From Eutreptiella sp. 'Long Island Sound 2002' (lineage: Eukaryota; Protista; Euglenida), in the NCBI GenBank assembly GCA_964036045.1, contig OZ038378.1, forward strand, positions 166,718,001 through 166,782,000: a stretch of 64,000 nucleotides of DNA, given 5' to 3'. This document shows, piece after piece, positions 8,503 through 57,075 of the stretch. Made by a program: the position numbers and the translations under genes. The notes beneath the pieces are model-generated. The model was not told where the DNA came from, searched no databases, and saw only the letters and a program-made list of their open reading frames with translations. Numbering within the stretch: the first letter of the stretch is position 1; the number at the start of each line of letters is the position of its first letter.

Positions 8503-10224
8503 TCATAGATTGAGAGTCAGAGTATGCAAGGCTGCATCTTTCAGCCCAGCAAGTGCGTGTGCACCACTGTCGCCGACTTCGTTGAACTTCAGATCTATCA
8601 GCAGGTTGCACAGTGTGGTTGCATCCTTCAAGCCAGCAAGCGCTTGTGCACCACTGTTTCCAATGTTGTTGCCATACAGATTCAGAGTCAGAGTGCGCAA
8701 TTTACTATCCTTCATTCCTGCAAGGGCATGGGCACCACTATCACCAATCTTGTTGAATTGTAGGCTCAGATGAAGAGTATGCAGTGCGACTGCATTCTTG
8801 AACCCAGCGAGTGCTTGGGCACCACTGTCTCCCATGTTATTCCGGTACAATGTCAGAGTGAGTGTGTGCAGCGCAGCTGCATGCTTCAACTCCGCAAGTG
8901 CCTGAACACCCCTATGCCCTACTTCGATGTGCTGCAGGTCCAGAGTCAGAGTATGTAGTGCAGCTGCGTGTTTCAGCCCCGCGAGTGCTTCAGCACCACA
9001 GTCCCCCAGGTTGTTGCCGCACAGATTCAGAGTCAAACCCTGCAGTCCAGCGGCATCCTTCAGCCCAGCAAGCGCTTGGGCACCAATGGCTCCCACTTTG
9101 TTGTTGCACAGATTCAGAGTCAGATTACGCAGTGCAGCTGCATCCTTCAATGCAGCCAGCGCTTGCGCACCAGTATCTCCAATATTGTTGCCACACAGAT
9201 TCACAGTCAGAGTGTGCAGCTTGGCTGCATCCTTCAACTCCGCAAGGGCCTGAGCCCCGCTGTCTCCAATGTTGTTAGATTTCAGGATCAGACTTAGAGT
9301 ATGAAGTGCAGTTGCATTCTTGAACCCAGCAAGTGCCTGGGCGCCACTGTCCCCCACATTATTCAGGTCTAGTATCAGAGTCAGACTGCGGAGCGCGGCG
9401 TCCTTCATTGCAGCCAGTGCTTTCGCACCACTGTCCCCTATTGCGTTGCACTGCACATCCAAAATGAGAGTGTGTAGTGCAGCTGCGTGCCTAAACATTG
9501 CAAGTGCTTTGGCACCCCTGTCCCCCACGTTGTTGCCACACAGATTCAACGTCAGAGTATGCAGTTTAGCTGCATCCTTCAACCCAGCAAGTGCATGGGC
9601 ACCACTGGCGCCTATTTTGTTGCCACACAATATCAGAGTTAAAGTGTGCAGTGCAGCCGCATTCTTCAATCCAGCAAGTGCCTGCGCACCAATGTCTCCC
9701 ACATTGTTAGGGGCCGATGCATTGAAAGACAGAGTGTGTAGCGCAGCCGCGTTATTGAACGTGGACACATTCAAAGACAGGGTGTGCAATGCAGCTGCAT
9801 CCTTCAACGCTGCAAGTGCCTGCACACCACTATCTCCCACGTTGTTGTTGGACAGATCCAGGGATAACGTGTGCAGTGCAGCGACATCTTTTAATCCAGC
9901 AAGCGCTTGGGCACCACAGTCTCCGATACCGTTACTGTGCAGATTCAGAGTCAAAGTGTGCAGCGCAGCTGCGTCCTTTAACCTGGCAAGCGCCTGGGCA
10001 CCAGAGGCTCCCACTGTCATCAGTTTCAAAGACATGGTGTGCAATGCCTGCATGCACAAATTCCGCATCACTTTGAAGACATCGGGTCCCCTGACAACAC
10101 CGTACCGTACATGTCGCTGCTGCAAGATATTCCACATCCGAAGACACACATGACTGCACACCGCGTTCTGTGCAAAGTCAGAGATACAAATCAAGACATC
10201 CTGAGGCAACTCAAATAGCTTCAT
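8503..10224 (-). CDS. Intronless leucine-rich-repeat protein (RNI-like 28-aa repeats) with F-box-like N-terminus
   Basis: ORF 8503..10257 with ATG at 10224 (MKLFELPQDVLICISDFAQNAVCSHVCLRMWNIL, F-box-like). Followed by roughly 17-18 repeats of consensus LHTLTLNLxxNNIGDSGAQALAxLKDAAA. Confidence 0.9.
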   Translation of the reverse strand: MKLFELPQDVLICISDFAQNAVCSHVCLRMWNILQQRHVRYGVVRGPDVFKVMRNLCMQALHTMSLKLMTVGASGAQALARLKDAAALHTLTLNLHSNGIGDCGAQALAGLKDVAALHTLSLDLSNNNVGDSGVQALAALKDAAALHTLSLNVSTFNNAAALHTLSFNASAPNNVGDIGAQALAGLKNAAALHTLTLILCGNKIGASGAHALAGLKDAAKLHTLTLNLCGNNVGDRGAKALAMFRHAAALHTLILDVQCNAIGDSGAKALAAMKDAALRSLTLILDLNNVGDSGAQALAGFKNATALHTLSLILKSNNIGDSGAQALAELKDAAKLHTLTVNLCGNNIGDTGAQALAALKDAAALRNLTLNLCNNKVGAIGAQALAGLKDAAGLQGLTLNLCGNNLGDCGAEALAGLKHAAALHTLTLDLQHIEVGHRGVQALAELKHAAALHTLTLTLYRNNMGDSGAQALAGFKNAVALHTLHLSLQFNKIGDSGAHALAGMKDSKLRTLTLNLYGNNIGNSGAQALAGLKDATTLCNLLIDLKFNEVGDSGAHALAGLKDAALHTLTLNL

Positions 10225-11339
10225 ATCTGCAGGAGCACAGGCAGTCTGTAGAGACAACGCCCAGGCAAACGATTGGCAAAGATGTGCTCATGTGGGCTGC
10301 CAAGTTGCACGGCACCCATACATCCTCCCTGAAAGCAGAATTGCATGGAGCAATGGAAATTCCGCGATGCAATTGCCCTCCCCTTGCCCCCCGGACATTC
10401 CTCATACCCTGCCCCCCCCCCCCCTTGCAATCCCCTCCTTTAGTGCGCGACGGTCTCCCGGCCGGGGGGGGGGGGCGGTCGCTAAGTGACTGTCTCCCCT
10501 GGGGGGGGGGGGATTGCAAGGGTATTCCAAGGCAAACTAAACAGCAAATGTTGGGCATCATTTTGCATGTGTCTGCTCTTGCTCATGTCCAACTCTGATG
10601 CTCGCGTGTTGCAACAATTTTGTGAGGTTTGACTGTTCAATGATACCATCCCTCCTCCACAAGTAGTACAAGAATAATGGTACAATAACCCTGCCGGGCA
10701 GTGGGTGGCCATGATATCAGCTTTTCAAATAACCCGCATGATCTCAACCGCAACCCCATGCCTCTCTTTTCGAGAGCCTGTTCAGTTTTCTTCTCAGCTG
10801 TCCTTTCACTTGGCCCTACACAATCCTGAAAGACCTTGTCCACGTCAAAATGCTTCCCCGCCGAAAAGCAGCACTTTGTGTAGTAGTCTAGGCCCTGGGG
10901 CTCCGTGTCCAGTTCCCCTGCTGGCATCCTTGTGCTGGCCTTCCCTGGACACTATGCACCACGCAACCAAAGGCAATTCCACACACTCTGATTGTTCAGC
11001 CGCTGTAGCGCCTTCATCACATCTGCCGCTTCCTATGGGGTCCGAAACCGCTGAATTCGCATTTCAAAGCGCATGATTTGCTTGACAGCCCCTCCATTGC
11101 ATGGGACCTTTTGAGATGATACACCTGGTCCACCGTTGAACATGAATTCTGACAGATCAAACCCAGGTTCATGAGCTCAGTCATGCAACTTCTTATCGGT
11201 CATGATGGCGGCGATCCTCAATCCCTGCCCTCCTCTTCTGCCCCCCGCCCACCCAATGCAGCGGTCCAACCGGTTGTCTGCCTCAACCTGCCTCCCAACG
11301 CTTAAAGTGACGATGTAGAGGGACTGTATTACCAGTTCG

Positions 11340-31159: not shown

Positions 31160-33159
31160 CTGCAGCGATGGGGGTTTGGACTGAGGGCCGGCAGGGCTGC
31201 AGGCCATGAGAGCAACGCAAAGCAGCTGCACACACACTTGGCACAAAGCAAATTTTTGTACGTACAGAAATTGCACACGACTGACCCCTGATTCATAACG
31301 CCGCGCACCAGTCGCTTGGACGCACATCAGTGGCTCAATTGCTTCTCTTGCCTTGTTTCCTTTGTTGTGTGGCAGAGGATCGGCAGAACTCGCACCCGCA
31401 CTTGTATGGCTTGGAGCCTTCTTTCTCGGGGCCTACCACCCCTACGGCCCCACCAGCGTGTCAGGGAGGGCGGTGACTGGTCAACGATCGCTCCCTTGCC
31501 GCCAAGGCAGTACAGGGGCTACCGCTGGTCCCCGACAAACGGGATCCCCAGGCCCTGTTTCTCCGGCAGGGAGTGAAAATTTCCGGGCCCTATTAGCCCG
31601 GATTGAGGGAGAACCGCCACATGGCGCGATAAGCTGTTCCAAGTGGTTGGGGTGCACCTCAAGTCTGTGTCCAGGGGGGAGAGCCACCGCATGCCGAACT
31701 GAACAGCGACCACGGGTCGGGGTGCACCTCAACGATGTGTCTGGGAGGGCCCCCACGTGGATAGTGCACATATTCTCGCGAGCAATCCCTTGTGTGTGTG
31801 TTTTTCGTTCAACTGTCAATAAGTGTGGGGCAAAGCAGTCAAGCAAAAGTGGGGGGGGGGGGGGGATGCACAGAATGTGCGACTAGATGGCATGGGGCTG
31901 CAGCATCATCACAGAAATGAAGCTGTCTCTGAAGAGATTGTGTCATACACCCAGTACTCACTGCCTGCGAACCGCGGCTAGAGCACAGCCCAAAGAAGAG
32001 ATCCGAAGCACAGTTTGGAGGGCATACTTGGAGCTCCAAATCATCATGCCGGTGCGGATATTGACCACTTTCGAGAAATATTTGACATCCAATGTACTGC
32101 TCTGGCAAATAATAGTGTCTGGCTTTGTGGGGTGTGAAGCAAACTTGATGTGGTCCTTCAATGCCTGAACGCAAATCAACCGCATGGAATGGATCAGGGG
32201 CCACACAGGGAAACAATTGCTAACAGAAGGGAGTGGTCACTTGCTCCCATGTGTCTCATTCTTGGTACGCAGGTTGCCCAGTACAAATCCATCTTCATGC
32301 CAGGCTCTGAGTGCCGGTTGCTGGTCCTGCAACTTCTTGCCTCCGAATCCCCAACACACACACCGGCTCCACTGCCACTCCCTTGGGGCTTGCGGCAGGT
32401 CCTTTTCCTGGATCTCCTCGTTGCAGCCCCAAAAAAGCAGTGTCTGCCCCGGCTGCTCACGATTGCAGCTGACTGCTCTCGTGGCGCCCGCTCGCTGGCA
32501 TGTTTAACCTTTGGGGGAAACACGCCTTGGACAGCTTCAACTTCATCTTGGGACCATCCCTTTCTGGTCTATTGTAGAGGGCGATGGGTCTCTGGGAGGC
32601 AGGGGGGGGGGGGCGGGGGCGAATGGATTGGGTCGACATGACATAGGACGGGTGGACGAAGAGAGCACCAAGGCAGCAAAATTTGCTTCTGACTGACGGG
32701 ATGATCCGGTGCAACCCTGAACACTTCCTTCATGAGTTACTCTCGAGGCCATTCCATCCGACGGAGGTGAGATGAGATCCCCGGCAGGTGACGCGGAAGG
32801 GGAATCCGCGCTGGTCCACCCCATTCGTCACGACTGACAGCTACCACCAGCAGCAATAGCAATTTTTCTTTCGGGCAGCTACAAGGCTCTTGCTTAGGCG
32901 GCCAAAACAGGTACACTTTTGTACCGCTGTTTTTTTAAAAAAATACCGAGAAATGATGTGGGTTATTTGAGTGATTTACCCTCTTTTTTTGGCCCTGATT
33001 TTTCATGAATGTTTTTTCAGTAAAAAAAGGTACTTTTTTCATGACGTTGCAACAATTTGGGCTCTGCTGTATTACTGCGTAGTAAGGTGTCTCCATAAAG
33101 AAGGATATTGCACTATACGTCCTGCTAAGTGTAGGTTAATACGCCTTTTTCTGCAACGC

Positions 33160-33344
33160 ATTGCGAGGCCTCGCAATACCAGGATTTGATTTTCGGTGCT
33201 TCTGCTAAAATTGAACGCATGCAGAATTCGCATATTGGTAATTACGCCAAATAACATGGTCCGTCGAATGCGAGGCCTCGCATTCCGGTTCGAAATATTC
33301 AAAAAAGGGTCACTTGCGCAAATCGAAATGCGAGGCCTCGCAAT
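33160..33344. promoter_or_regulatory. Left-end cluster of three AWTGCGAGGCCTCGCAWT palindromes (14-bp cores at 33162, 33269, 33329)
   Basis: Perfect cores read directly. The copy at 33266-33285 extends to a 20-bp perfect palindrome. Function is inferred. Confidence 0.8.
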
Positions 33345-33780
33345 AATGTAGCATGAAACAATAAAATGGACAGATCCACCAACTACACAGCATGTACATT
33401 CCCTTTGATGCGGCGCTACTGTATGGCCGGCCATACAGGTCCCGCCGGCATCTCTAGTTTTCATGCTGTGGTCACCGCTGACTTCACTGCCCAACAGCAA
33501 TGGTCGCGCGCCGCAACTGGGTACCGCAGTTAGGATTAACAAGAGAAATGTGGGACCAGTTGACCGTTACAAGTAACCGAGAATGTGCACGCGCGACGCA
33601 GTTGCGCGGAAAGATCGATATGCGCGTGTCGCGTGTGCAGCGCTGTGCTGGCAAGAAATTTTATTTACCTGTAGCATTATAAGTGCCTTTTTTCTTTAAT
33701 TGTTCAATTCAAATACACTTTTTCAATTTTTGAGATGATTGTTCATGCCACGGAACATTGCGCATTGAGCGCAGAGGGAG

Positions 33781-35718
33781 TTGGAACGGACTGTCAGGCG
33801 ATTGCGAGCTTTCTGTGCAACGGAACATGGATATACCACTCCTGAATCCCTATGGGCTGCTGTTGAAAACAACAAGAGCGGAGCTGTTTTCTTTTATGAT
33901 TTTGCGTGCTTGTTGCGACTGAACCGGAAGACACGGCACTCACTTCGGAGACTGAAAGGCAGACCAGAGAGTCGAGCGGCAAATCACTTCAAGGAGAAGT
34001 TCTTTAACCTATACAAAATCTTGCGCTTGCGGTGCACACCCCAACACCAGGACGAGGACGCCCCCGGTTTTGCCTCTATCGGGCGGCAGAACAGGCGCCG
34101 GCTGCGCAGGACAGGGCTGCTTCAGCTGCGAGAGGAAACTATGAAGCAACGGTCCGCGGGAAAGATGCTTGAAACATGGCGTTGGATGGAGAACCGGCAG
34201 GTTTGCGTCTGGATCGACAATTGCTACATTAAGCAGTATGGAACGCATCCAACGATCCAGGATCAGTCGCAAAATTGCACAGCGCTTTGCGTCGTTGAGA
34301 TTCCGTGCAGGTTGCCGTACTTCAGAGGACACCCAACCATAGATGTGCTCATCGGCAGCATCGGCAATGTGGCTGCAGCGCTGGTCAGAATGAAACGGAG
34401 CTTCCGTGGGATAGTAACAGATCTGGGCCTGCTTGCGGACAGACCAGCGCCAATACCGAGCATCAGGGCGCCGCTTGACATCGTGCGATATCCAGTACCG
34501 AATCCTGGTTGGACACCGCTGTTGCTGACTACGCATCAGGTATCCTCGTACAAGGGCCTCGTTGAGGTGTTGGACTACATTGCATCCCTGTCGAACCACA
34601 CGCACCCGATTGTGCCCATCCTCGTTGATGAGAACATACACAAAAGATGCCTCAAGTTATTGTACTGCGACAGAACGCAGCGCTGGAACTGGCACGAAAA
34701 ACTCAAGAGAACTCCCATCTTGTACGGCTGTTGGCATCCCTATAAATACCTTGTGACAAACGTGTGGCGGCGCTTTCATTCTCTATTTGTGTACTTCCGC
34801 TTTGGCCGCTTAGGAGTGGGGAAAACAGTAGGGTCGTACCCGAAGATGAGAGTCATGGAGAGAACTATGGCTGGCATCCTGAAGTGTTCGCCGCATTTCT
34901 TGCGGCAGTTGCGGCGGAAGTCGAACAGGTTACAGGCTGTTGCCGATCACGGTGGGACGGCGATGGATCGACTGAAGAGTGTGGTATGTAAAGCTATGGT
35001 GAACCTTCTGCAAAACTGGTGTCCGCTTGTCCTCTACTGTGGGTTTATCGTGAGGCAATGCAATTGGTCCGGACAACACCCAGGATCCGCCATCGACGCC
35101 CATCATGTTCTCCGACTGGTGTTCGTGCTTTTGACAGAGCTTGGCAGGGCTACAGCTGACCCACTTGTGTATGTGAGGACCATCGGTGTCGCCTTAATGC
35201 ATTGGCAGGCGTTCAACAGCGCCCTGCCCGGATTGTGCTATGGTGAAGAGTTTGGCGAAGTTATGCTCAGTCGACTGGGGTCCATGAAAGACGGACACAC
35301 CTGGGTCGTCACACCGAGCGACGTAGAAGATTTGTTCGTCCAAATATGTCCTGCCAGAATTAACAGACGCCTCCTGGTCAGCGGTTTGTCGTCCGACATT
35401 GAAACAGAGATCCGACAGCGCTTGCACTCGTATGTTACTGACGACCGCCTGAGAATTCGGTACTATCCCTGGCAATCGGGTAGCTCGACTATGGAGAGGC
35501 ACTGGGAGGCTGATCCGGATTTTCCGTCCGACCCTTACGGCGAGCCGGACGTGGACACATACAGGACTTTGTTGACCGATGTTTTGCGTACATTTCTGCG
35601 GCAACCCCAAAACTTCTCACCTGCTGTGCTACGGTTGATGGACAACATGGTTCCTCTGCGGTCTGATGCGCAGAGAACGAACATTTTGGACACAATCTGG
35701 GCCTTTACCGATGCATAG
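33781..35718 (+). CDS. Putative DDE (RNase H-fold) transposase with helical insertion, DUF6589/KDZ-like; true start probably in an upstream exon
   Basis: 645-codon uninterrupted frame with candidate catalytic motifs in order: VWIDN (D146), LVDEN (D283), GCWHPYK (H319) and YGEEFGE (E489-E493). Counted from the ORF-track start. An in-frame stop lies at 33766-33768 and a phase-0 acceptor gcgcag ends at 33774. Confidence 0.6.
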   Translation: MERTVRRLRAFCATEHGYTTPESLWAAVENNKSGAVFFYDFACLLRLNRKTRHSLRRLKGRPESRAANHFKEKFFNLYKILRLRCTPQHQDEDAPGFASIGRQNRRRLRRTGLLQLREETMKQRSAGKMLETWRWMENRQVCVWIDNCYIKQYGTHPTIQDQSQNCTALCVVEIPCRLPYFRGHPTIDVLIGSIGNVAAALVRMKRSFRGIVTDLGLLADRPAPIPSIRAPLDIVRYPVPNPGWTPLLLTTHQVSSYKGLVEVLDYIASLSNHTHPIVPILVDENIHKRCLKLLYCDRTQRWNWHEKLKRTPILYGCWHPYKYLVTNVWRRFHSLFVYFRFGRLGVGKTVGSYPKMRVMERTMAGILKCSPHFLRQLRRKSNRLQAVADHGGTAMDRLKSVVCKAMVNLLQNWCPLVLYCGFIVRQCNWSGQHPGSAIDAHHVLRLVFVLLTELGRATADPLVYVRTIGVALMHWQAFNSALPGLCYGEEFGEVMLSRLGSMKDGHTWVVTPSDVEDLFVQICPARINRRLLVSGLSSDIETEIRQRLHSYVTDDRLRIRYYPWQSGSSTMERHWEADPDFPSDPYGEPDVDTYRTLLTDVLRTFLRQPQNFSPAVLRLMDNMVPLRSDAQRTNILDTIWAFTDA

Positions 35719-35797
35719 AATCGGTTTTAGGTTGATTCCCAGCTGTGTTATGTTATTGCGCGCACAACGGTGCTTTTGCTTCCTGCTTCGTGACTAG

Positions 35798-35932
35798 AAT
35801 GCGAGCCCTCGCAATCGCCTCCTGCAAAAGTACGTTTTTGAGTAGATGTTCTTGCCTGAATGCGAGGCCTCGCAATACAAAGTAGGTAATTATAAACAAA
35901 TACCTGTGTTTTCGATTTCAAGCCCTCGCAAT
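35798..35932. promoter_or_regulatory. Intergenic palindrome cluster: one-mismatch core at 35800, perfect core at 35861, degenerate half-site at 35917-35930
   Basis: aatgcgagccctcgcaat; aatgcgaggcctcgcaat; ttcaagccctcgcaat. Confidence 0.8.
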
Positions 35933-35992
35933 CAAACCATAAATACATGCCGAACGACACAGTTTTTTCCCTTTTTACAGGCCTATTTCATC

Positions 35993-38575
35993 ATGGCAGA
36001 GAGCGTGACGCCAACAAAAGCGGGCAGAGCATCACCAGACACCTTGCAAGTACCGTCCACGCAGGACACGGTGCCAGAGGAGTTCCTGAGGTTCTACAAG
36101 AAGCCTTTGCAGGTGGAGGTCGACGTCACTACCCTTGGGATCGACAAGCAGAAGAAGTACGGTCAGATCCGGAAGTATCGACAGAAGCAAGTGGACGAGG
36201 TTAAGAGAAGTCTCATGGCAAACCCTCCTGAGGAGCCCGTGACCGTGACTGCATGGCAATCACCAGGTACGTAACCGGGCCGCAGCGGCGATGTTTCATG
36301 TGCATGCTCTCAAGACCCTCTTTCCGTCCTCGGTTGATGATTGGATCGTCATTGTAAAGCAGCACTGCGTCTGTGCGCTCAAAGAGCTCCGAAACGAACG
36401 TCTTGAGAAAGGCCTCGACCCACCGCAGTGGATGCAAATTGTTAAGGTCAACCTGCTGAAGACGGAGACGAGTTGGGCTACTCGGGTAGCAATCGCAAGT
36501 CGCAAGCAGGCCATCGATCTCGACATCTCTGCCGTGCCACCGTCGGAAGCAGCTGACAACTTTCTTATGCATTTGCGGGATTCGCCGGCTGGGCCTGACG
36601 AGTCCGCCAGGGATCACATTCACCGAACCATTCCAAAGGCCGCGAGCGGAAGTGCATGGATCCCTCCACAGGTTTCGGATGATGAACTCCAAGTATGTTG
36701 CTGTTTGGAATGCGAGGCCTCGCAATCTGCAATCTAGCAACGTACCCTCCGCCTGTGCAGTCTTATGCCGTTAAGGCCTTTGGACCCTTCTTCACGTGGG
36801 TGTACCACGCGGAGGACGCAGCTGTGCAGTCCGTGATCAATTTCAAGAACATGGACACACCACTGACAATGAACCAGTTGAAGTTTCTGCAGAGTTTGTA
36901 CGAGCCAGCCCTCCTACAACAGGTCGCCGCCGATATGTGGAGACCAAAGGTGAACATCAAGGAAATCCAGGACCGGGCCTCTACTTACCAGAAGCAGCAG
37001 TGGATCAAGTGGCATTGGGGAGCCGCTCCGGACAGCGTCATCCATCCCTCTCGAAGTATGTTCCCCTGACAGGCAAGTAGGCAAACACGCAAACATGAAG
37101 CCAAATCAGTCAATTAAAACTTTCCACACCTGTGCAGAGGCCAGTCCGGCAGAGAGGGTACCGCTGCATGACTGGGATGTCAATTGGTTTCGGATCCCTT
37201 TGGGGGCCTGGCAGTGGAAATTTGAGGCTCCGTCGCCAAAATGGGAAACGCTGAGCAAGGAGCGGTTCTGGACGGCAATGGGACACACTTTTCCAAAGCG
37301 TGGGGCATCAATGGACCTTGGCCGCCCCCGACTGGCCACGCCCTTGACGGAGGTCAAGTCTACGGAGTCTGGAAAAGTGGATGTGCTGAACATTGAGGCT
37401 AGTGGAAAGATGGTCAAAATGTTGTGCGCCCCCTACAAAGATCCACAAGATCCCCTTAAGTTTTTGGAGGCGCTGGAAACGGACATGATTCTTCTGAATG
37501 CGAATCTGGCGGATGGTGCTGATTCTGTGAGTCCGGTTGTGATGGCGAAGTTGATCGAAAACCCCGAAACGGTGCTGGTCATCTACGGCGAGGTGTCGCC
37601 CGCGTTTGACGCCCTGCAAACAGTTCTGGAGTCACCTGGGATTGCGGAGAACGATTACTGGTATGAGAAAGTGCAAGTGTGTCACTGGCTACCGGGTGCG
37701 GGCAAGACGGGAAAAGGCGGAATTCAAGTGAATGCACTGGTTCTGGTGGCCGGTGTAAAGATCAAGAAAAAGGTATGTACAACGCTTTCGGATTGCGAGG
37801 CCTCGCATTCCCTTTAACATCTCGCTACTCCTCTCCGCAGATCCCACCATACATCGGCTTGGATCGCCGCGAACGTGATGAACCAGGGTTCATGCCCCTT
37901 GTCCTCTATACGTGGCTGGCGACGCTGATGCGGAACAGAGACCGCTCGGACAACGTCATGATCTTCGATCGCGATGTGCACATGGCAGCGAAAGTGGCAG
38001 CTTTGGATGATCTTCCACAAGTTTGTTCTCTGCAGTTGACGAAATCAAAGCGATCGGACTGGGCACGGAGCTACCATCACGAGGTGACGCAGCGTGTGCA
38101 GGCAGGAGTAGACCAGACGAGGTTGGCACAGTGCGAGCTCTGGATCCAGTTCGGCATGCCAATGTGGGTCGAGGACGAGAACGTGGGGTATGCCCATCTG
38201 GAAGTGTCGACTGCAGAGGAAGCAAGTCAGAAGGCCCATGCAGAAGTCGGAGACGAGGACTTGGAGGATCCGGAGGACGACGACGATGACGCGGTGCTGC
38301 TGGAACATGATCGGCGATCTCCTCGGAAGTCAACGCAGGTTCGGGCGTTCCAGGCTGGCGATGCACATGAAGATGAGCCGGAGGCGAGCCAACCGCCGAA
38401 GCCGAAAAAGCCGAAGACCAAGGCGGCAGCAGAGCCGAAGCACACGACCCTGACGCAGCCCCAAGGGGTGAAGAGGACGCTGAGCCTTCCGGATCCGGGA
38501 ACAGCAGTGGGCTCCACGGCGAGGAGCAAGATGTTGGCAGCGGGATTGAAGAAGAAGAAGAAGCCCTCCACGTAA
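35993..38575 (+). CDS. Five-exon ~765-aa protein: ParB/Srx-like N-terminal domain, degenerate beta-class N6/N4 DNA methyltransferase-like domain, and acidic/basic tail
   Basis: Exons 35993-36266, 36334-36692, 36761-37055, 37138-37772 and 37841-38575 total 2298 nt (766 codons). Introns 2-4 are GTATGT...CAG of 68, 82 and 68 nt, and each joins consecutive ORF-track frames in phase. Intron 1 is GTACGT...cctcGG (67 nt, non-canonical acceptor). A polypyrimidine acceptor ending at 35980 lies just upstream of the ATG. Confidence 0.75.
36709..36726. promoter_or_regulatory. Palindrome copy inside intron 2 (36693-36760) of the ParB-like gene
   Basis: aatgcgaggcctcgcaat. Confidence 0.85.
37792..37809. 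promoter_or_regulatory. Palindrome copy inside intron 4 (37773-37840) of the ParB-like gene
   Basis: attgcgaggcctcgcatt. Confidence 0.85.
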
Positions 38576-38623
38576 AGGCGTTGGTAGCGCTGCAGCCCTG
38601 TTCTACGAGATATGTCGTCCCGC

Positions 38624-38891
38624 ATTGCGAGGCCTCGCATTCCCAGATTAGGCAACTTGCCATTTCTGCTCTTTTTTTTAGAAGCATCATCTGGAGATGA
38701 TGATTATACTGACCCTAAGGCAGCAGTCAGTATTGCGAGGCCTCGCATTCTTAAAGCCTCACGTGTCGACGCACACAATGTATTTATAGTTTGTATTCTC
38801 TTTTTGCTTGTTTCTGTGTGATCCAAAGCTGTGTGTAATTGCAAGGGATTACCTTGATTCATGTCTCGTATTGCGAGGCCTCGCAATACGA
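38624..38891. promoter_or_regulatory. Right-end cluster of three palindromes (cores at 38626, 38734, 38872)
   Basis: The last copy extends to the 26-bp perfect palindrome tcgtattgcgaggcctcgcaatacga (38866-38891). Confidence 0.8.
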
Positions 38892-39960
38892 ATAGGAAAA
38901 TAGTATATTTTTACATCATTTCGGCAACCTCGGGCGTAAAACTTGGCTTTTTTAAGGGTGCAAAAAAAAAGGAAGGAGAGGACAACACCAAAAAGCAAGG
39001 TTTTATAGTCGAAAAACCCCCAAAATATGGTGCATTTTACAGAAAAGTGGGTAAAATGGCAAAAATTGTGAGGCCCTCGGACCCCCCCCCCAACAGCCCC
39101 CCCCCAGAGTCTTTGACAGATAGCTGAGTGGTGGGTCGCAGCGGGACCGGGTCTAGCCGCCCTTCCGGTGTTGTACTACACGGCAAGCAACCAGCCTTTA
39201 TGGACGCGCCCCCCTTTCTAGGCTAGGCCGATTGCTGTAGGGCTCCCAACTTTCACAGGAGCAATGCAAGTTCGAAGGCTGGAAGCCCCAAGTGTTGATG
39301 GAGAACCACAATTGCCCCATGCCCCGTGCTGATGTCCTCCAGACCGGCGACATAATCCCATACTCCAAGAGCTGGGCTTTTTTGGAGGAAAATCATGCAT
39401 TTTTGTGGGTAATTGGGCCAAAAAATTGAGTAGTCAAATTTTGTGGTTGAAAAAAGTAGGCAAATCGGGCAAATTACCTGTACCAAATTTGCAGACATCC
39501 CGGTACAAAGGGTACCTATTTCGGCCGCCTAAGTCTTGAGTACGGGCACATCCTGACGAGCCAGCGGACCCCCAATGCCCTTGTTTCGCCCCTTTTCACA
39601 TCCACCGCCATTCTTAATTCTGCACTGATTGGCTCTGTGCAATGCAGCTCTCGGGAGGGCACCATGTTGCACTTGAACTCTACTTGAGGGAGAGGGGAGC
39701 GGCATATGAGGGAAATCAGCCAATTTGGACACTCGTGTCTGATCTGCTACTTTCGGCATCCGTATCCAACCGGGAGCTTGCTTTTGGGAATCATCGAAAA
39801 AGATCGTCACCGCCTGGCATCGCGCATTCGGAGAGGGGGGGGGCGGGGGTGGCATTACGGGCGCTCTTCTGGGCTGGCCAAGACTCTGTGGACTAAGGCA
39901 GCCCGTCCAGCTGGGCCACCACTTGGGCAAACATGTGGACCATTGGCGGCGGACTTATAC

Positions 39961-43384: not shown

Positions 43385-45304
43385 GTAACGCAACCACCCC
43401 CTCAATTCGGCGAAGAAATCCCAACAATTCGGCAGGACAATTCGGCGGGCCTATTTTTTGGCGAAATGCTTCCCAGTCACCAGGATTATGGCCCTGGCCC
43501 CCCAAACACACTGTCCCTTTGGTTGCTGTGTTGTCAGAGACATGTGGAAACCCTTGTAAGCTGAAAATTTTTTTGCATCGTGCTGCTTCTATAAGACGAA
43601 AAATGACATCTGCAGAGCGAAAATGAGTGGTTGACTGGTTACAGTGTTGGGCTATAAGATGCTGAAAATTCGGGTGCCTAGGTTCAAACCCTGTTGAGGG
43701 TAAATTTGTGACCTGGACCCAGAGTCAAAGACAGGTTTTTGGAAGTGTCCGGGGGGTAACTTGGGGTAACTTGGTCCCACCGTTTCAGTTTGTGGCGCTT
43801 TTTTTTCATGTGCACGGGAAGGCTGTGCACTTTCTGAATATCCAAAAGGCGCCGATTGCTTCAACGACATTTTGGAAAAACGGCACCGTTTTTGGGCGGG
43901 GTCACCCAGAAAAGTGGCAAAACTTGCCCACAGTCAAATAGGGGGTTTTGGAGGTGTCGGGGGGGGGGGGGAACTTGGTCCCACCGTTTCAGTTTGTGGT
44001 GCTTTTTTTTTCATGTGCACGGGAAGACTGTGCACTTTCTGAATATCCAAAAAGCGCCGACCACCTACCGAGGTATATGTTCTGAAAATTGGACGAATGT
44101 CCTCCAGAATCGTTAGGGGGCGCCCACCTTCCATGAGACAATACACCAAATCCTCCGGGAGGTCCTGTGTATCGCGTGGATCCTTCACTTGCAGAATGGT
44201 TTGCCAAGATGGCTTTGATGCCAGCTCAGCAGGAAGAGAAACTGGCTCCTGTTCACGGAAAGCACGGCGCCTACCACGCTGCAGCTCTACCACCTCTGAC
44301 CTATATTTCTTGTCTCTGCTTTGATCCCATTTCTGTGCCACATACTCATGCTTCCTCTTTTTGTCTGCCCGTTCCTTGTCCTCTTTCTCCTTCACCTTCC
44401 GTTTCTCTTCCCGTTCTACATATCCTGGGGCAAGCACCAACTTTGCGCCCGCACGAATGACCTTGGCACACGCGGCATCATGAATCCCTGAGATAACATG
44501 CCTTGTCAATGAGGCCTCCCGAGTCTCATCCATCTTCTTACCACATGGCTTACAGTATAGCTTGCCGTTGTTATCATACAAACCATACTTACCGTACTTT
44601 TCAACCCTCTGTGCAATTGTAACAGTTTTCAGCACACGGGGGTTTTTGGCCTTCTTTAAGGTGTCTGGACGCGAAGGCTTTGCAGGCTTCTTCTGGGCAC
44701 CTGACTCCTTTGCAGAAGTGGAAGACTCGGCAACCTCGCATTCCCCAGGCTTTTTCTGGGCACCTGACTCCTTTGCAGAAGTGGAAGACTCGGCAACCTC
44801 GCATTCCCCAGCCACAGCTACAGAATCCACTGCAGGCACCAGTAGCCCGGAATCCACTGATTGGGGGCCTGTTGATGAGCTGCCCGAAGAACGGCGGCTG
44901 AAGAACGCACTGGGCCGTGCAGAGCGAACACAAAATTCGCAAACTGCCCCCTCACCGGCATCAGGATACTTGTCCCGAAGCAAAGCTTGATCAGCGGAGG
45001 ACAACGAATCCCAGGGGACCAAAGACACGTCCTTTTGTGGACAGTAAAAACACTGCATGGTGCCAATCTGAACAACCAATGTACAAAGAAAAGGTATTAT
45101 GCAGTAAGGGATGCCTCCAACTCAGGTGACCCAGAACCCATAAACCCCAACAGGTCGGCAAAACGAGGCGGCAAAGTCCCAGAAACCTAGTGATTCGGCA
45201 AAACAAATCGGCGAAATTCAGAAACCGAACAATTCGGCAGACCAATTCGGCAAATTCGGCCAAATTCGGCCACCGAATTGGGGGGGGGGGGGTTACTAAC
45301 GCTG
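43385..45304 (-). mobile_element. Internally deleted hAT-like element with CGGBP1-type zinc-finger transposase N-terminus
   Basis: Minus-strand 5' end cagcgttagtaacccc...caattcgg resembles the other end (gtaac...accaccccctcaattcgg). Clusters of AATTCGGC lie at 43403-43448 and 45192-45280. Confidence 0.55.
43934..45058 (-). pseudogene. Truncated CGGBP1-like/hAT transposase N-terminus (C2H2 finger), no catalytic domain
   Basis: TIAQRVEKYGKYGLYDNNGKLYCKPCGKKMDETREASLTRHVISGIH followed by DLVYCLMEGGRPLTILEDIRPIFRTYTSVGG. The frame then runs into an unrelated duplicated repeat at ~44060. It contains a 63-bp tandem duplication (GECEVAESSTSAKESGAQKKP x2). Confidence 0.7.
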
Positions 45305-55535: not shown

Positions 55536-55751
55536 GTAAGAACCCAAATACACGCCCTGGAGCGAAGATGACAGGCAAGGCACGTGCACTGCGCATCTGG
55601 ACCGCTCGTCAGGACATACACAAAAGAATGAAGGAGACACACACACTTCGGGAGGGAAATCAGAACCACAACAAAAACACGTGCAGTGTGGGTGAAACCG
55701 GGCACGGCGATGGCACGACACTCCAGAAAAACCTCGTCAGGCCACAGACAC

Positions 55752-55938
55752 GGACACACACACACACACACACACACACGATTTACGGAACGAAACGGGC
55801 AGCAGTCAAGACGCGGGCAGCAGTCAAGAAGGCCTGTTTGCACTCATTCTCGTCAGGCACAATCAGAACAAAAGCAATGGCATTGTCTGGCCGCGCTAGG
55901 CGCCTTTCTGCAGTACAGGGTACATGAGAGTGAAAGTG

Positions 55939-55974
<36 letters not shown>

Positions 55975-56130
55975 TTACGGAACGAAACGGGCAGCAGTCA
56001 AGACGCGGGCAGCAGTCAAGAAGGCCTGTTTGCACTCATTCTCGTCAGGCACAATCAGAACAAAAGCAATGGCATTGTCTGGCCGCGCTAGGCGCCTTTC
56101 TGCAGTACAGGGTACATGAGAGTGAAAGTG

Positions 56131-56170
<40 letters not shown>

Positions 56171-56326
56171 TTACGGAACGAAACGGGCAGCAGTCAAGAC
56201 GCGGGCAGCAGTCAAGAAGGCCTGTTTGCACTCATTCTCGTCAGGCACAATCAGAACAAAAGCAATGGCATTGTCTGGCCGCGCTAGGCGCCTTTCTGCA
56301 GTACAGGGTACATGAGAGTGAAAGTG

Positions 56327-56364
<38 letters not shown>

Positions 56365-56537
56365 TTACGGAACGAAACGGGCAGCAGTCAAGACGCGGGC
56401 AGCAGTCAAGAAGGCCTGTTTGCACTCATTCTCGTCAGGCACAATCAGAACAAAAGCAATGGCATTGTCTGGCCGCGCTAGGCGCCTTTCTGCAGTACAG
56501 GGTACATGAGAGTGAAAGTGAACACACACACACACAC
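55752..56537. repeat. Tandem array of four ~192-196 bp units, each containing a variable (CA)n tract
   Basis: tttacggaacgaaacgggcagcagtcaagacgc starts at about 55782, 55974, 56170 and 56364. Confidence 0.95.
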
Positions 56538-57075
56538 AAACAACCACGACAGACGACACACGACACAAAGCGAGGCGCGCGACGCAAAACCACGTGACGA
56601 GCAGACCCGTCAGGCCAGGGTCACGCTGGCATAGTGGGGGCGGAGCGCCTCTCCAACTTGTCCCACTGAACCCGTGCCGGAGGAAACAAGAGGGGACGGT
56701 GAGAGAAGACAGACCGATTGGAGTGGTGAGGCGCCCCTCGGCACACATGCTTATGGTTGTCGTGAGGCACCCTCTGGATGCCCACGCAATCGCACACCGA
56801 CTCATGCAGACAAGGACGTCGACACAGAACCAAACAAACGTGTCCGCATATGCAGCCGTCAACATTGCGTCGGACACCTCGCGATGGGGGTTGCTGTCAG
56901 GCAACCGCCCGGCTGTGTCGTGATGAAGAGGCGCATCCCGACACAGCACAATACTGTCGTGTGCCAACTGATCGAGGTCGCACACACAACTGATCGAGCC
57001 ACGGCCAGACAAAACACATGAACGTGACCAGAAATGGAAGGACAGGGGGTCAGTAACGTAAGCCGCATGAGCAGC

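Follow-up and report, generated by a model that had tools for sequence, protein, structure and literature searches.

The 64,000-nucleotide stretch of Eutreptiella sp. 'Long Island Sound 2002' DNA analysed here (the window; contig OZ038378.1, positions 166,718,001 to 166,782,000) carries a whole 6,641-bp DNA transposon with the hallmarks of a cut-and-paste DDE element, namely 34-bp terminal inverted repeats (TIRs) and a 5-bp TCTTG target-site duplication, the latter read from one insertion only. Two genes fill the element, an intronless DDE transposase (gene 1) and, downstream, a predicted five-exon accessory gene (gene 2), and eleven copies of a short palindrome are dispersed around and between them. 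As judged from sequence comparison, these palindromes appear to be selected features of the family, since they recur with a common core and changed flanks in four distant families of related elements.

When up to two mismatches were allowed, a search of the window for TGCGAGGCCTCGCA retrieved ten matches, nine with an exact core and one (35800) with a single core mismatch. In 100 shuffles the mean was 0.28 matches and the largest count 2, so that ten was never reached, and the ten copies placed by the first-pass annotation were thus borne out with their coordinates. No further match was found in the remaining 57 kb, even at up to three mismatches. All ten full copies have, as previously described, A-W before and W-T after the core. 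The term "18-bp palindrome", on the contrary, applies strictly to three of them, perfect over at least 18 bp (33160, 33266 and 38866), the W/W pair being non-complementary in the other seven. What had been taken for a half-site at 35917 is actually a decayed full site, according to the bases read in other copies of the element: G is found at 35918 and 35920 at depths of 1588 and 1493 of 1659 in run X2 and of 2215 and 2194 of 2410 in run X3, as well as in all of run X9 and in 20 of 30 in run X1. These bases turn the site into TGCGAGCCCTCGCA, so that most other copies have here a full site with one mismatch, and eleven sites are therefore counted in the element.

The sites lie 5' of each gene, in two introns of gene 2 and on the 3' side, and the motif is absent from the TIRs. 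The outer triplets are roughly symmetric, 269 and 344 bp from the element ends, and five of the eleven sites, including two in gene-2 introns, are 1.7-2.9 kb away from whichever end is closer. All eleven fall outside the 68% that is coding under the predicted gene model (naive P about 3e-6). The earlier statement that the palindromes never occur in coding exons is thus valid for this element, but not as a rule of the family, given that one of four sites in a related locus (L002) and two of seven in another (L003) are placed within the transposase open reading frame (ORF). DNA flanking the sites is unrelated between copies and Tandem Repeats Finder detected no array within the element, in agreement with the previous exclusion of a tandem duplication. 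In the gene-2 comparison, one of the eleven non-coding variants among the 40 listed of 1,327 lies inside a site, too few to test. No Rfam match was obtained.

A metagenome scan led, among 65 candidate stretches, to five loci with related transposases, corresponding to four families whose transposases are 26-32% identical to that of the window (L006 belongs, as a decayed copy, to the L002 family). Multi-copy palindromes made of a GCG-N6-CGC core and family-private flanks were found in all four families. Locus L003, with a transposase of 32% identity, has the identical 12-bp core GCGAGGCCTCGC, five times exactly and in seven sites overall within 2,681 bp, flanked by ACG/CGT. Four sites with flanks AGTCC/GGACT are present in L002, and four sites each around GCGCGATCGCGC in L004 and L005. 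Controls consisted of 30 first-order Markov resamples and, as the L002, L004 and L005 motifs were read from the same loci, the controls for these three are post hoc; the L003 core alone had been defined in advance. Flanks are self-complementary within each family and different between families; the motifs of the window, L002 and L003 each match their own element only, those of L004 and L005 matching once in each other. Conservation of the word beside transposases that have diverged to about 30% identity is most readily attributed to selection for protein binding, and the original suggestion of selected sites is supported both by this recurrence and by the confinement of the motif to the element in the window.

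A second palindrome, GGTGTTTYTCAACACC, was observed in L004 (five copies, at 247, 779, 800, 1607 and 3199, one of them within the transposase ORF) and L005 (three copies, at 263, 1053 and 1277, two within the ORF), whose transposases are 47% identical to each other; the coexistence of two palindrome types suggests more than one binder. At about 450-775 of L004, upstream of the transposase, a small ORF ends in a basic patch and a CxxC...CxC motif, with a site directly after its stop.

The palindromes might be functionless by-products, either footprints or targets of small insertion elements or words spread by local conversion, and indeed copies of the element are decayed, sites are mutated in individual copies and at least one nested insertion has occurred. 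Unrelated flanks without a tandem array, together with a 12-bp core that recurs beside a transposase only 32% identical and that lies inside coding sequence in two relatives, make this origin very unlikely. The element could also have captured sites for a host factor acting in transcription or on chromatin, or signals at the RNA level that drive or process its transcripts; this would suit the position of the clusters, just 5' of where each gene starts and downstream of gene 2, and the sharing of the GCG-N6-CGC core by families with diverged proteins. Moreover, contigs of runs X6 and X8 joining 37813-37815 to 35859 contain two palindrome sites separated by spacers that differ from those of the window, suggesting that the word is shared by sister families or by other repeats of this host and thus exists in other contexts. 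However, the remaining 57 kb of host sequence is free of matches, the Rfam search gave none for an RNA signal, and the family-specific, self-complementary flanks are a better fit to private binders; since private flanks favour a binder encoded by the element over a host factor, we judge this explanation unlikely.

Table 1. Features of the transposon, in positions of the window.
Feature	Coordinates	Strand	Remarks
Whole DNA transposon	32893..39533	+	6,641 bp; defined by TIRs, target duplication and contig run-offs
Left target-site duplication	32888..32892	.	TCTTG
Right target-site duplication	39534..39538	.	TCTTG
Left terminal inverted repeat	32893..32926	+	34 bp, 88% identical to right arm; begins CTTAGGCGGCC
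Right terminal inverted repeat	39501..39533	-	
Gene 1, intronless DDE transposase	33745..35718	+	ORF; family-wide profile; fold match
Gene 2, predicted	35993..38575	+	five exons, 781 aa; GT-AG model yields a single open frame
Gene 2, predicted exons	35993-36266, 36286-36692, 36761-37055, 37138-37772, 37841-38575	+	
Insertion, about 304 bp	39072..39375	.	missing in many other copies; joints skip 302-306 bp in 4/4 runs
Palindrome site 1	33160..33177	.	left cluster; core starts 269 bp from left end
Palindrome site 2	33267..33284	.	left cluster (triplet with sites 1 and 3)
Palindrome site 3	33327..33344	.	
Palindrome site 4	35798..35815	.	one mismatch; intergenic
Palindrome site 5	35859..35876	.	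intergenic
Palindrome site 6	35915..35932	.	decayed in this copy; one-mismatch full site in most other copies
Palindrome site 7	36709..36726	.	predicted 68-nt intron 2 of gene 2 (36693-36760)
Palindrome site 8	37792..37809	.	predicted 68-nt intron 4 of gene 2 (37773-37840)
Palindrome site 9	38624..38641	.	right cluster
Palindrome site 10	38732..38749	.	
Palindrome site 11	38870..38887	.	core of 26-bp perfect palindrome; 344 bp from right end, insertion discounted

In four of four public runs, one of which is an estuary metagenome, contigs diverge into unrelated flanks before 32893 (7, 54, 61 and 5 contigs; agreement 0.34-0.49), and this exit into many different flanks indicates that the family is dispersed and has many copies. 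Many long contigs encode database proteins that correspond to decayed copies of the element, at 70-92% identity. The window copy itself is likely dead, because gene 1 is interrupted at codon 8 by a stop (33766-33768), a sense codon in other copies, and because of the 304-bp insertion near the right end. The insertion opens with C-runs; no target duplication was found around it and no second copy in the window. The observed/expected CpG ratio is 0.92 in the element versus 0.60 in the rest of the window. In all four runs the stretch 33363-33635 exceeds the remainder of the element in depth, several-fold to tenfold, and it has its own loose contig ends at 33363 and 33405, so that it is shared with a more abundant repeat; it includes a single 20-bp palindrome (33419-33438) and has no Rfam match.

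Profile search with gene 1 collected, at an E threshold of 0.001, 1,294 clusters; neither its protein nor any of 34 homologues gave a Pfam match above curated cut-offs. The family conserves the motifs WxDN, RxPxD, a second D, GxWHxY and EExxE, and with them an acidic triad (D150 in 107/109, D287 in 126/126 and E497 in 76/80 sequences), E493 and E494 being likewise conserved, so that the catalytic E is not singled out among the three. A structure model from 130 sequences reached a predicted local distance difference test score (pLDDT) of 93 and a predicted template-modelling score of 0.87, and was used in place of one from 9 sequences (pLDDT 35). Its top fold matches are transposases and integrases, pointing to an RNase H-type fold: the P-element transposase comes first (Z 10.1, root-mean-square deviation 4.9, 279 aligned), then Hermes (Z 8.4, deviation 6.4, 280 aligned), Tn5 (Z 7.8), ISCth4 (Z 6.7), and RAG1 and Transib (Z 5.0-5.6). 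With Foldseek no match was obtained at E 0.001 (best E 0.002), nor at E 0.001 against viral structures.

The modelled protein would share with the P-element and Hermes transposases (PDB 6p5a, 8edg) a DDE core of RNase H type into which a large helical segment is inserted, but identity is about 10%, the target duplication is of 5 bp instead of the usual 8 bp and no THAP or BED finger was detected. Assignment to known superfamilies met with difficulties in each case. The P superfamily, characterised by a THAP domain and a 7-8 bp duplication, offers the closest fold, but gene 1 has no THAP match and the duplication is of 5 bp. This length agrees with hAT5, and the sequence domains of hAT (BED finger, C-terminal dimerisation) have no Pfam match in the window protein or the 34 homologues. 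Membership in the CMCT clade (EnSpm/Plavaka/Chapaev/Transib), for which the source gives C(2)C and H(3-4)H in the stretch that separates the second D from the E, 5'-CA..TG-3' ends and a 2-5 bp duplication (PMC12730594), was rejected: C(2)C and H(3-4)H are absent, only H291, H323, C431 and H483 exceeding 50% in that region, and the termini are CT..AG rather than CA..TG, although the 5-bp duplication fits. No paper on the gene 1 family or on the palindrome was found in the literature searched, whose coverage leaves out most subscription papers and Repbase Reports. With no Pfam family, a confident P/hAT-like fold and a 5-bp duplication, the gene 1 family appears undescribed in that literature. 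Long contigs of the same source collection also encode a sister family of transposases (P0015-P0017), about 35% identical.

The transposase could itself bind the palindromes as internal or subterminal sites, aiding the pairing of the ends or repressing its own gene. The palindromes accompany the transposase in all four distant families, where gene 2 was not seen, the sites of relatives may lie inside the transposase ORF, and the near-symmetric outer triplets and a conserved, arginine-rich, helical N-terminal domain, recognised in model and alignment, are also in keeping with such a role. Parallels are offered by the subterminal repeats of hAT and CACTA elements and by the Mu enhancer. Against it stand TIRs devoid of the motif, the five sites far from either end, two of them in gene-2 introns, and the two palindrome types of L004 and L005 with their hint of more than one binder. 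On balance we think that the transposase, though the main rival of gene 2, is a rather improbable reader of the sites: their placement in the introns of gene 2 and between the genes, with none in the TIRs, favours an accessory coat over a transposase that acts at the ends only.

Gene 2, copies of which were recovered from other assemblies (P0019, P0205-P0208), is predicted to have introns of 19, 68, 82 and 68 nt. Its GT-AG architecture is that of a eukaryotic host. Intron 2 is read through in four further copies, in three different frames, and intron 4 in one, using a frame closed in the window; both observations support the non-coding nature of these introns. No joint was found at the predicted introns among 15 of the 21 joints, those listed from the four runs, the kind of contig being unrecorded, and hence this is no test of splicing. 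By eye, against what we take to be the ParB consensus, the front of the protein has box-I/box-II-like motifs (QIRK...PVTV; VIAKQHRVCAL in P0205). The back resembles, again by eye and by the consensus we assume, a circularly permuted amino-methyltransferase whose catalytic and S-adenosylmethionine (SAM)-binding motifs are degenerate, and the tail is acidic and lysine-rich. The arginine patch for binding cytidine triphosphate (CTP) in ParB, presumably GxxRxxA, is altered in the four copies spanning it (window, P0205-P0207), to KQHR in one and KQHC in three. Neither a D/N/S-PPY motif nor a glycine-rich SAM loop was found by eye at the expected places, comparison with two phage methylases gave no significant match, and no methyltransferase family or PDB match was obtained. 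An Atlas search with exon 4 gave no usable match.

The size and symmetry of the sites resemble those of parS, and the first-pass annotation had accordingly considered segregation, as well as methylation. The palindromes would then act as genuine parS-like centromeres, by which excised circles are segregated or tethered, or else as targets of a methylating enzyme of the element; each core has two CpGs, and fusions of ParB and methyltransferase are reported in algal transposons (PMC12477816). Segregation is, however, unlikely for an integrated element inside whose TIRs no gene for a ParA-like protein or for replication, and no ATPase family match, was noticed, and methylation by the element is likewise unlikely, considering the C-terminal region of gene 2, in which catalytic and SAM-loop motifs were not found. 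The altered arginine patch also counts against readings of this kind. Nor were related sites or transposases present in prokaryotic or viral collections: transposase relatives were found in 0/78 and 0/20 candidate stretches in viral contigs and in 0/12 in prokaryote genomes. The 18-mer had one single-copy match in viral contigs, taken as chance. Paired cores 20-50 bp apart occurred at 15 loci of prokaryote genomes, all of 67-76% GC and mostly local duplications, none of which matched transposase or phage-ParB profiles. Taken together, we hold an origin of this kind to be highly improbable.

We favour, with moderate confidence, the explanation that the palindromes serve the element for self-recognition and are bound by a dimeric gene-2 protein, which would control the expression or the chromatin state of the element. 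A protein dimer would read the palindromes, as suggested by their two-fold symmetry and fixed half-site spacing; the reader would be gene 2, on account of its ParB-like motifs and of the sites in its own introns; and its product, coating the element from which it is expressed, may control expression or chromatin state. By analogy with VANC and VANDAL elements, the outcome would be protection from silencing, or autoregulation, rather than segregation. The CpG ratio of the element fits protection from methylation.

Several observations weigh against this explanation. The CpG difference may just reflect the youth of the element. The gene-2 model requires an unusual, putative first intron of 19 nt. 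Searches with gene 2 in Pfam, NCBIfam, PHROGs, PDB sequences and phage and plasmid collections were blank or gave chance matches, and in the comparison with 63 phage ParB-like proteins the best-aligned stretch was indeed the box-II segment, but at a probability of 0.2% and E 0.25, which is not significant; the ParB likeness of gene 2 is thus one of box-like motifs read by eye, supported by no significant library or profile match. Finally, tblastn detected no gene-2 homologue in the five related loci, whose contigs are only 1.5-4 kb, and for this reason these loci are silent on which protein binds.

Dispersed short palindromes on a mobile element, some of them in coding sequence and bound by a dimer, are known from ParB/parS and from the OB operators of RK2, where KorB acts as a repressor. 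Unlike those systems, the element described here is integrated in a eukaryotic genome, no ParA was seen, likeness to ParB is at the level of motifs only and no related sites were found in prokaryote genomes. A working analogue is VANDAL21 of Arabidopsis, where VANC21 binds family-private motifs located in introns, between genes and in non-coding DNA at the termini, and where the motif co-evolves with the protein (PMC5735166). Family-private short motifs in non-coding parts are also a property of the window element, but VANC motifs are described as one-orientation arrays spread by tandem repeats, the sites reported here being dispersed palindromes. Anti-silencing of the VANC type entails loss of methylation and derepression. 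No sequence link to VANC was found.

The red-algal Plavaka (EnSpm/CACTA) elements of Bostrychia moritziana are similar in being DDE transposons with an accessory gene, PAG3, for which a ParB-like N-terminal domain is proposed (HHpred e-value 0.29), along with adjacent tandem inverted repeats as its binding sites (bioRxiv 10.1101/2025.02.11.637652); binding is a proposal in both cases. The PAG3 repeats are tandem arrays beside the gene, in contrast with lone palindromes with unrelated flanks spread over the whole element; the C(2)C and H(3-4)H motifs of Plavaka/EnSpm are missing from the window transposase, the element measures 6.6 kb versus 17-19 kb, and no 2-oxoglutarate-oxygenase match was found in it. 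In Ectocarpus, the accessory protein of Sola1-1_Ec32 is described as ParB-like with an N4C/N6A methyltransferase (PMC12477816), resembling gene 2 in an apparent ParB-like front, a methyltransferase-like back and carriage by a DNA transposon, although gene 2 seemingly has no catalytic motifs (by eye) and Sola1-1_Ec32 differs in transposase and orientation and is described, in the text available, with no mention of binding sites. ParB-type helix-turn-helix domains fused to adenine methyltransferases are reported in chlorophytes and chytrids (PMC4738411).

Elsewhere in the window, two ORFs lie on the minus strand: one of 594 aa with leucine-rich repeats (LRR_6, E 1e-44) at 8503-10287, and one of 395 aa at 43934-45121 that has two clusters of cysteines (weak zf-FCS match, E 0.07). 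The latter, possibly a fragment of another transposon, has a 63-bp internal duplication from which two stray half-sites of the palindrome arise (44734 and 44797). A tandem repeat of about 192-bp units, 97-98% identical, occupies 55744-56560. Over the whole window CpG is depleted (0.63) and CA and TG are in excess (1.37 and 1.36), a composition that looks like that of a CpG-methylating host.

The palindromes are a real feature and probably belong to a known theme, that of transposon self-recognition sites associated with an accessory gene; in this case the sites are dispersed and palindromic, with a core conserved across an apparently unnamed transposase family. It is conceivable, though doubtful, that the family represents an unnamed DDE clade of superfamily size, provided with a barcode derived from parS/ParB, a probably CTP-independent dimer and a dead methyltransferase domain, and shielded by these from host silencing. 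If so, the barcode would consist of the conserved GCG-N6-CGC core plus private flanks, read by a co-evolving ParB-like dimer that would coat the element encoding it. An exact 18-bp site, a compact element with two genes and relatives that share the core with changed flanks give the element its value: cross-binding makes it tractable to ask whether the accessory protein or the transposase is the reader, and how specificity shifts between families.

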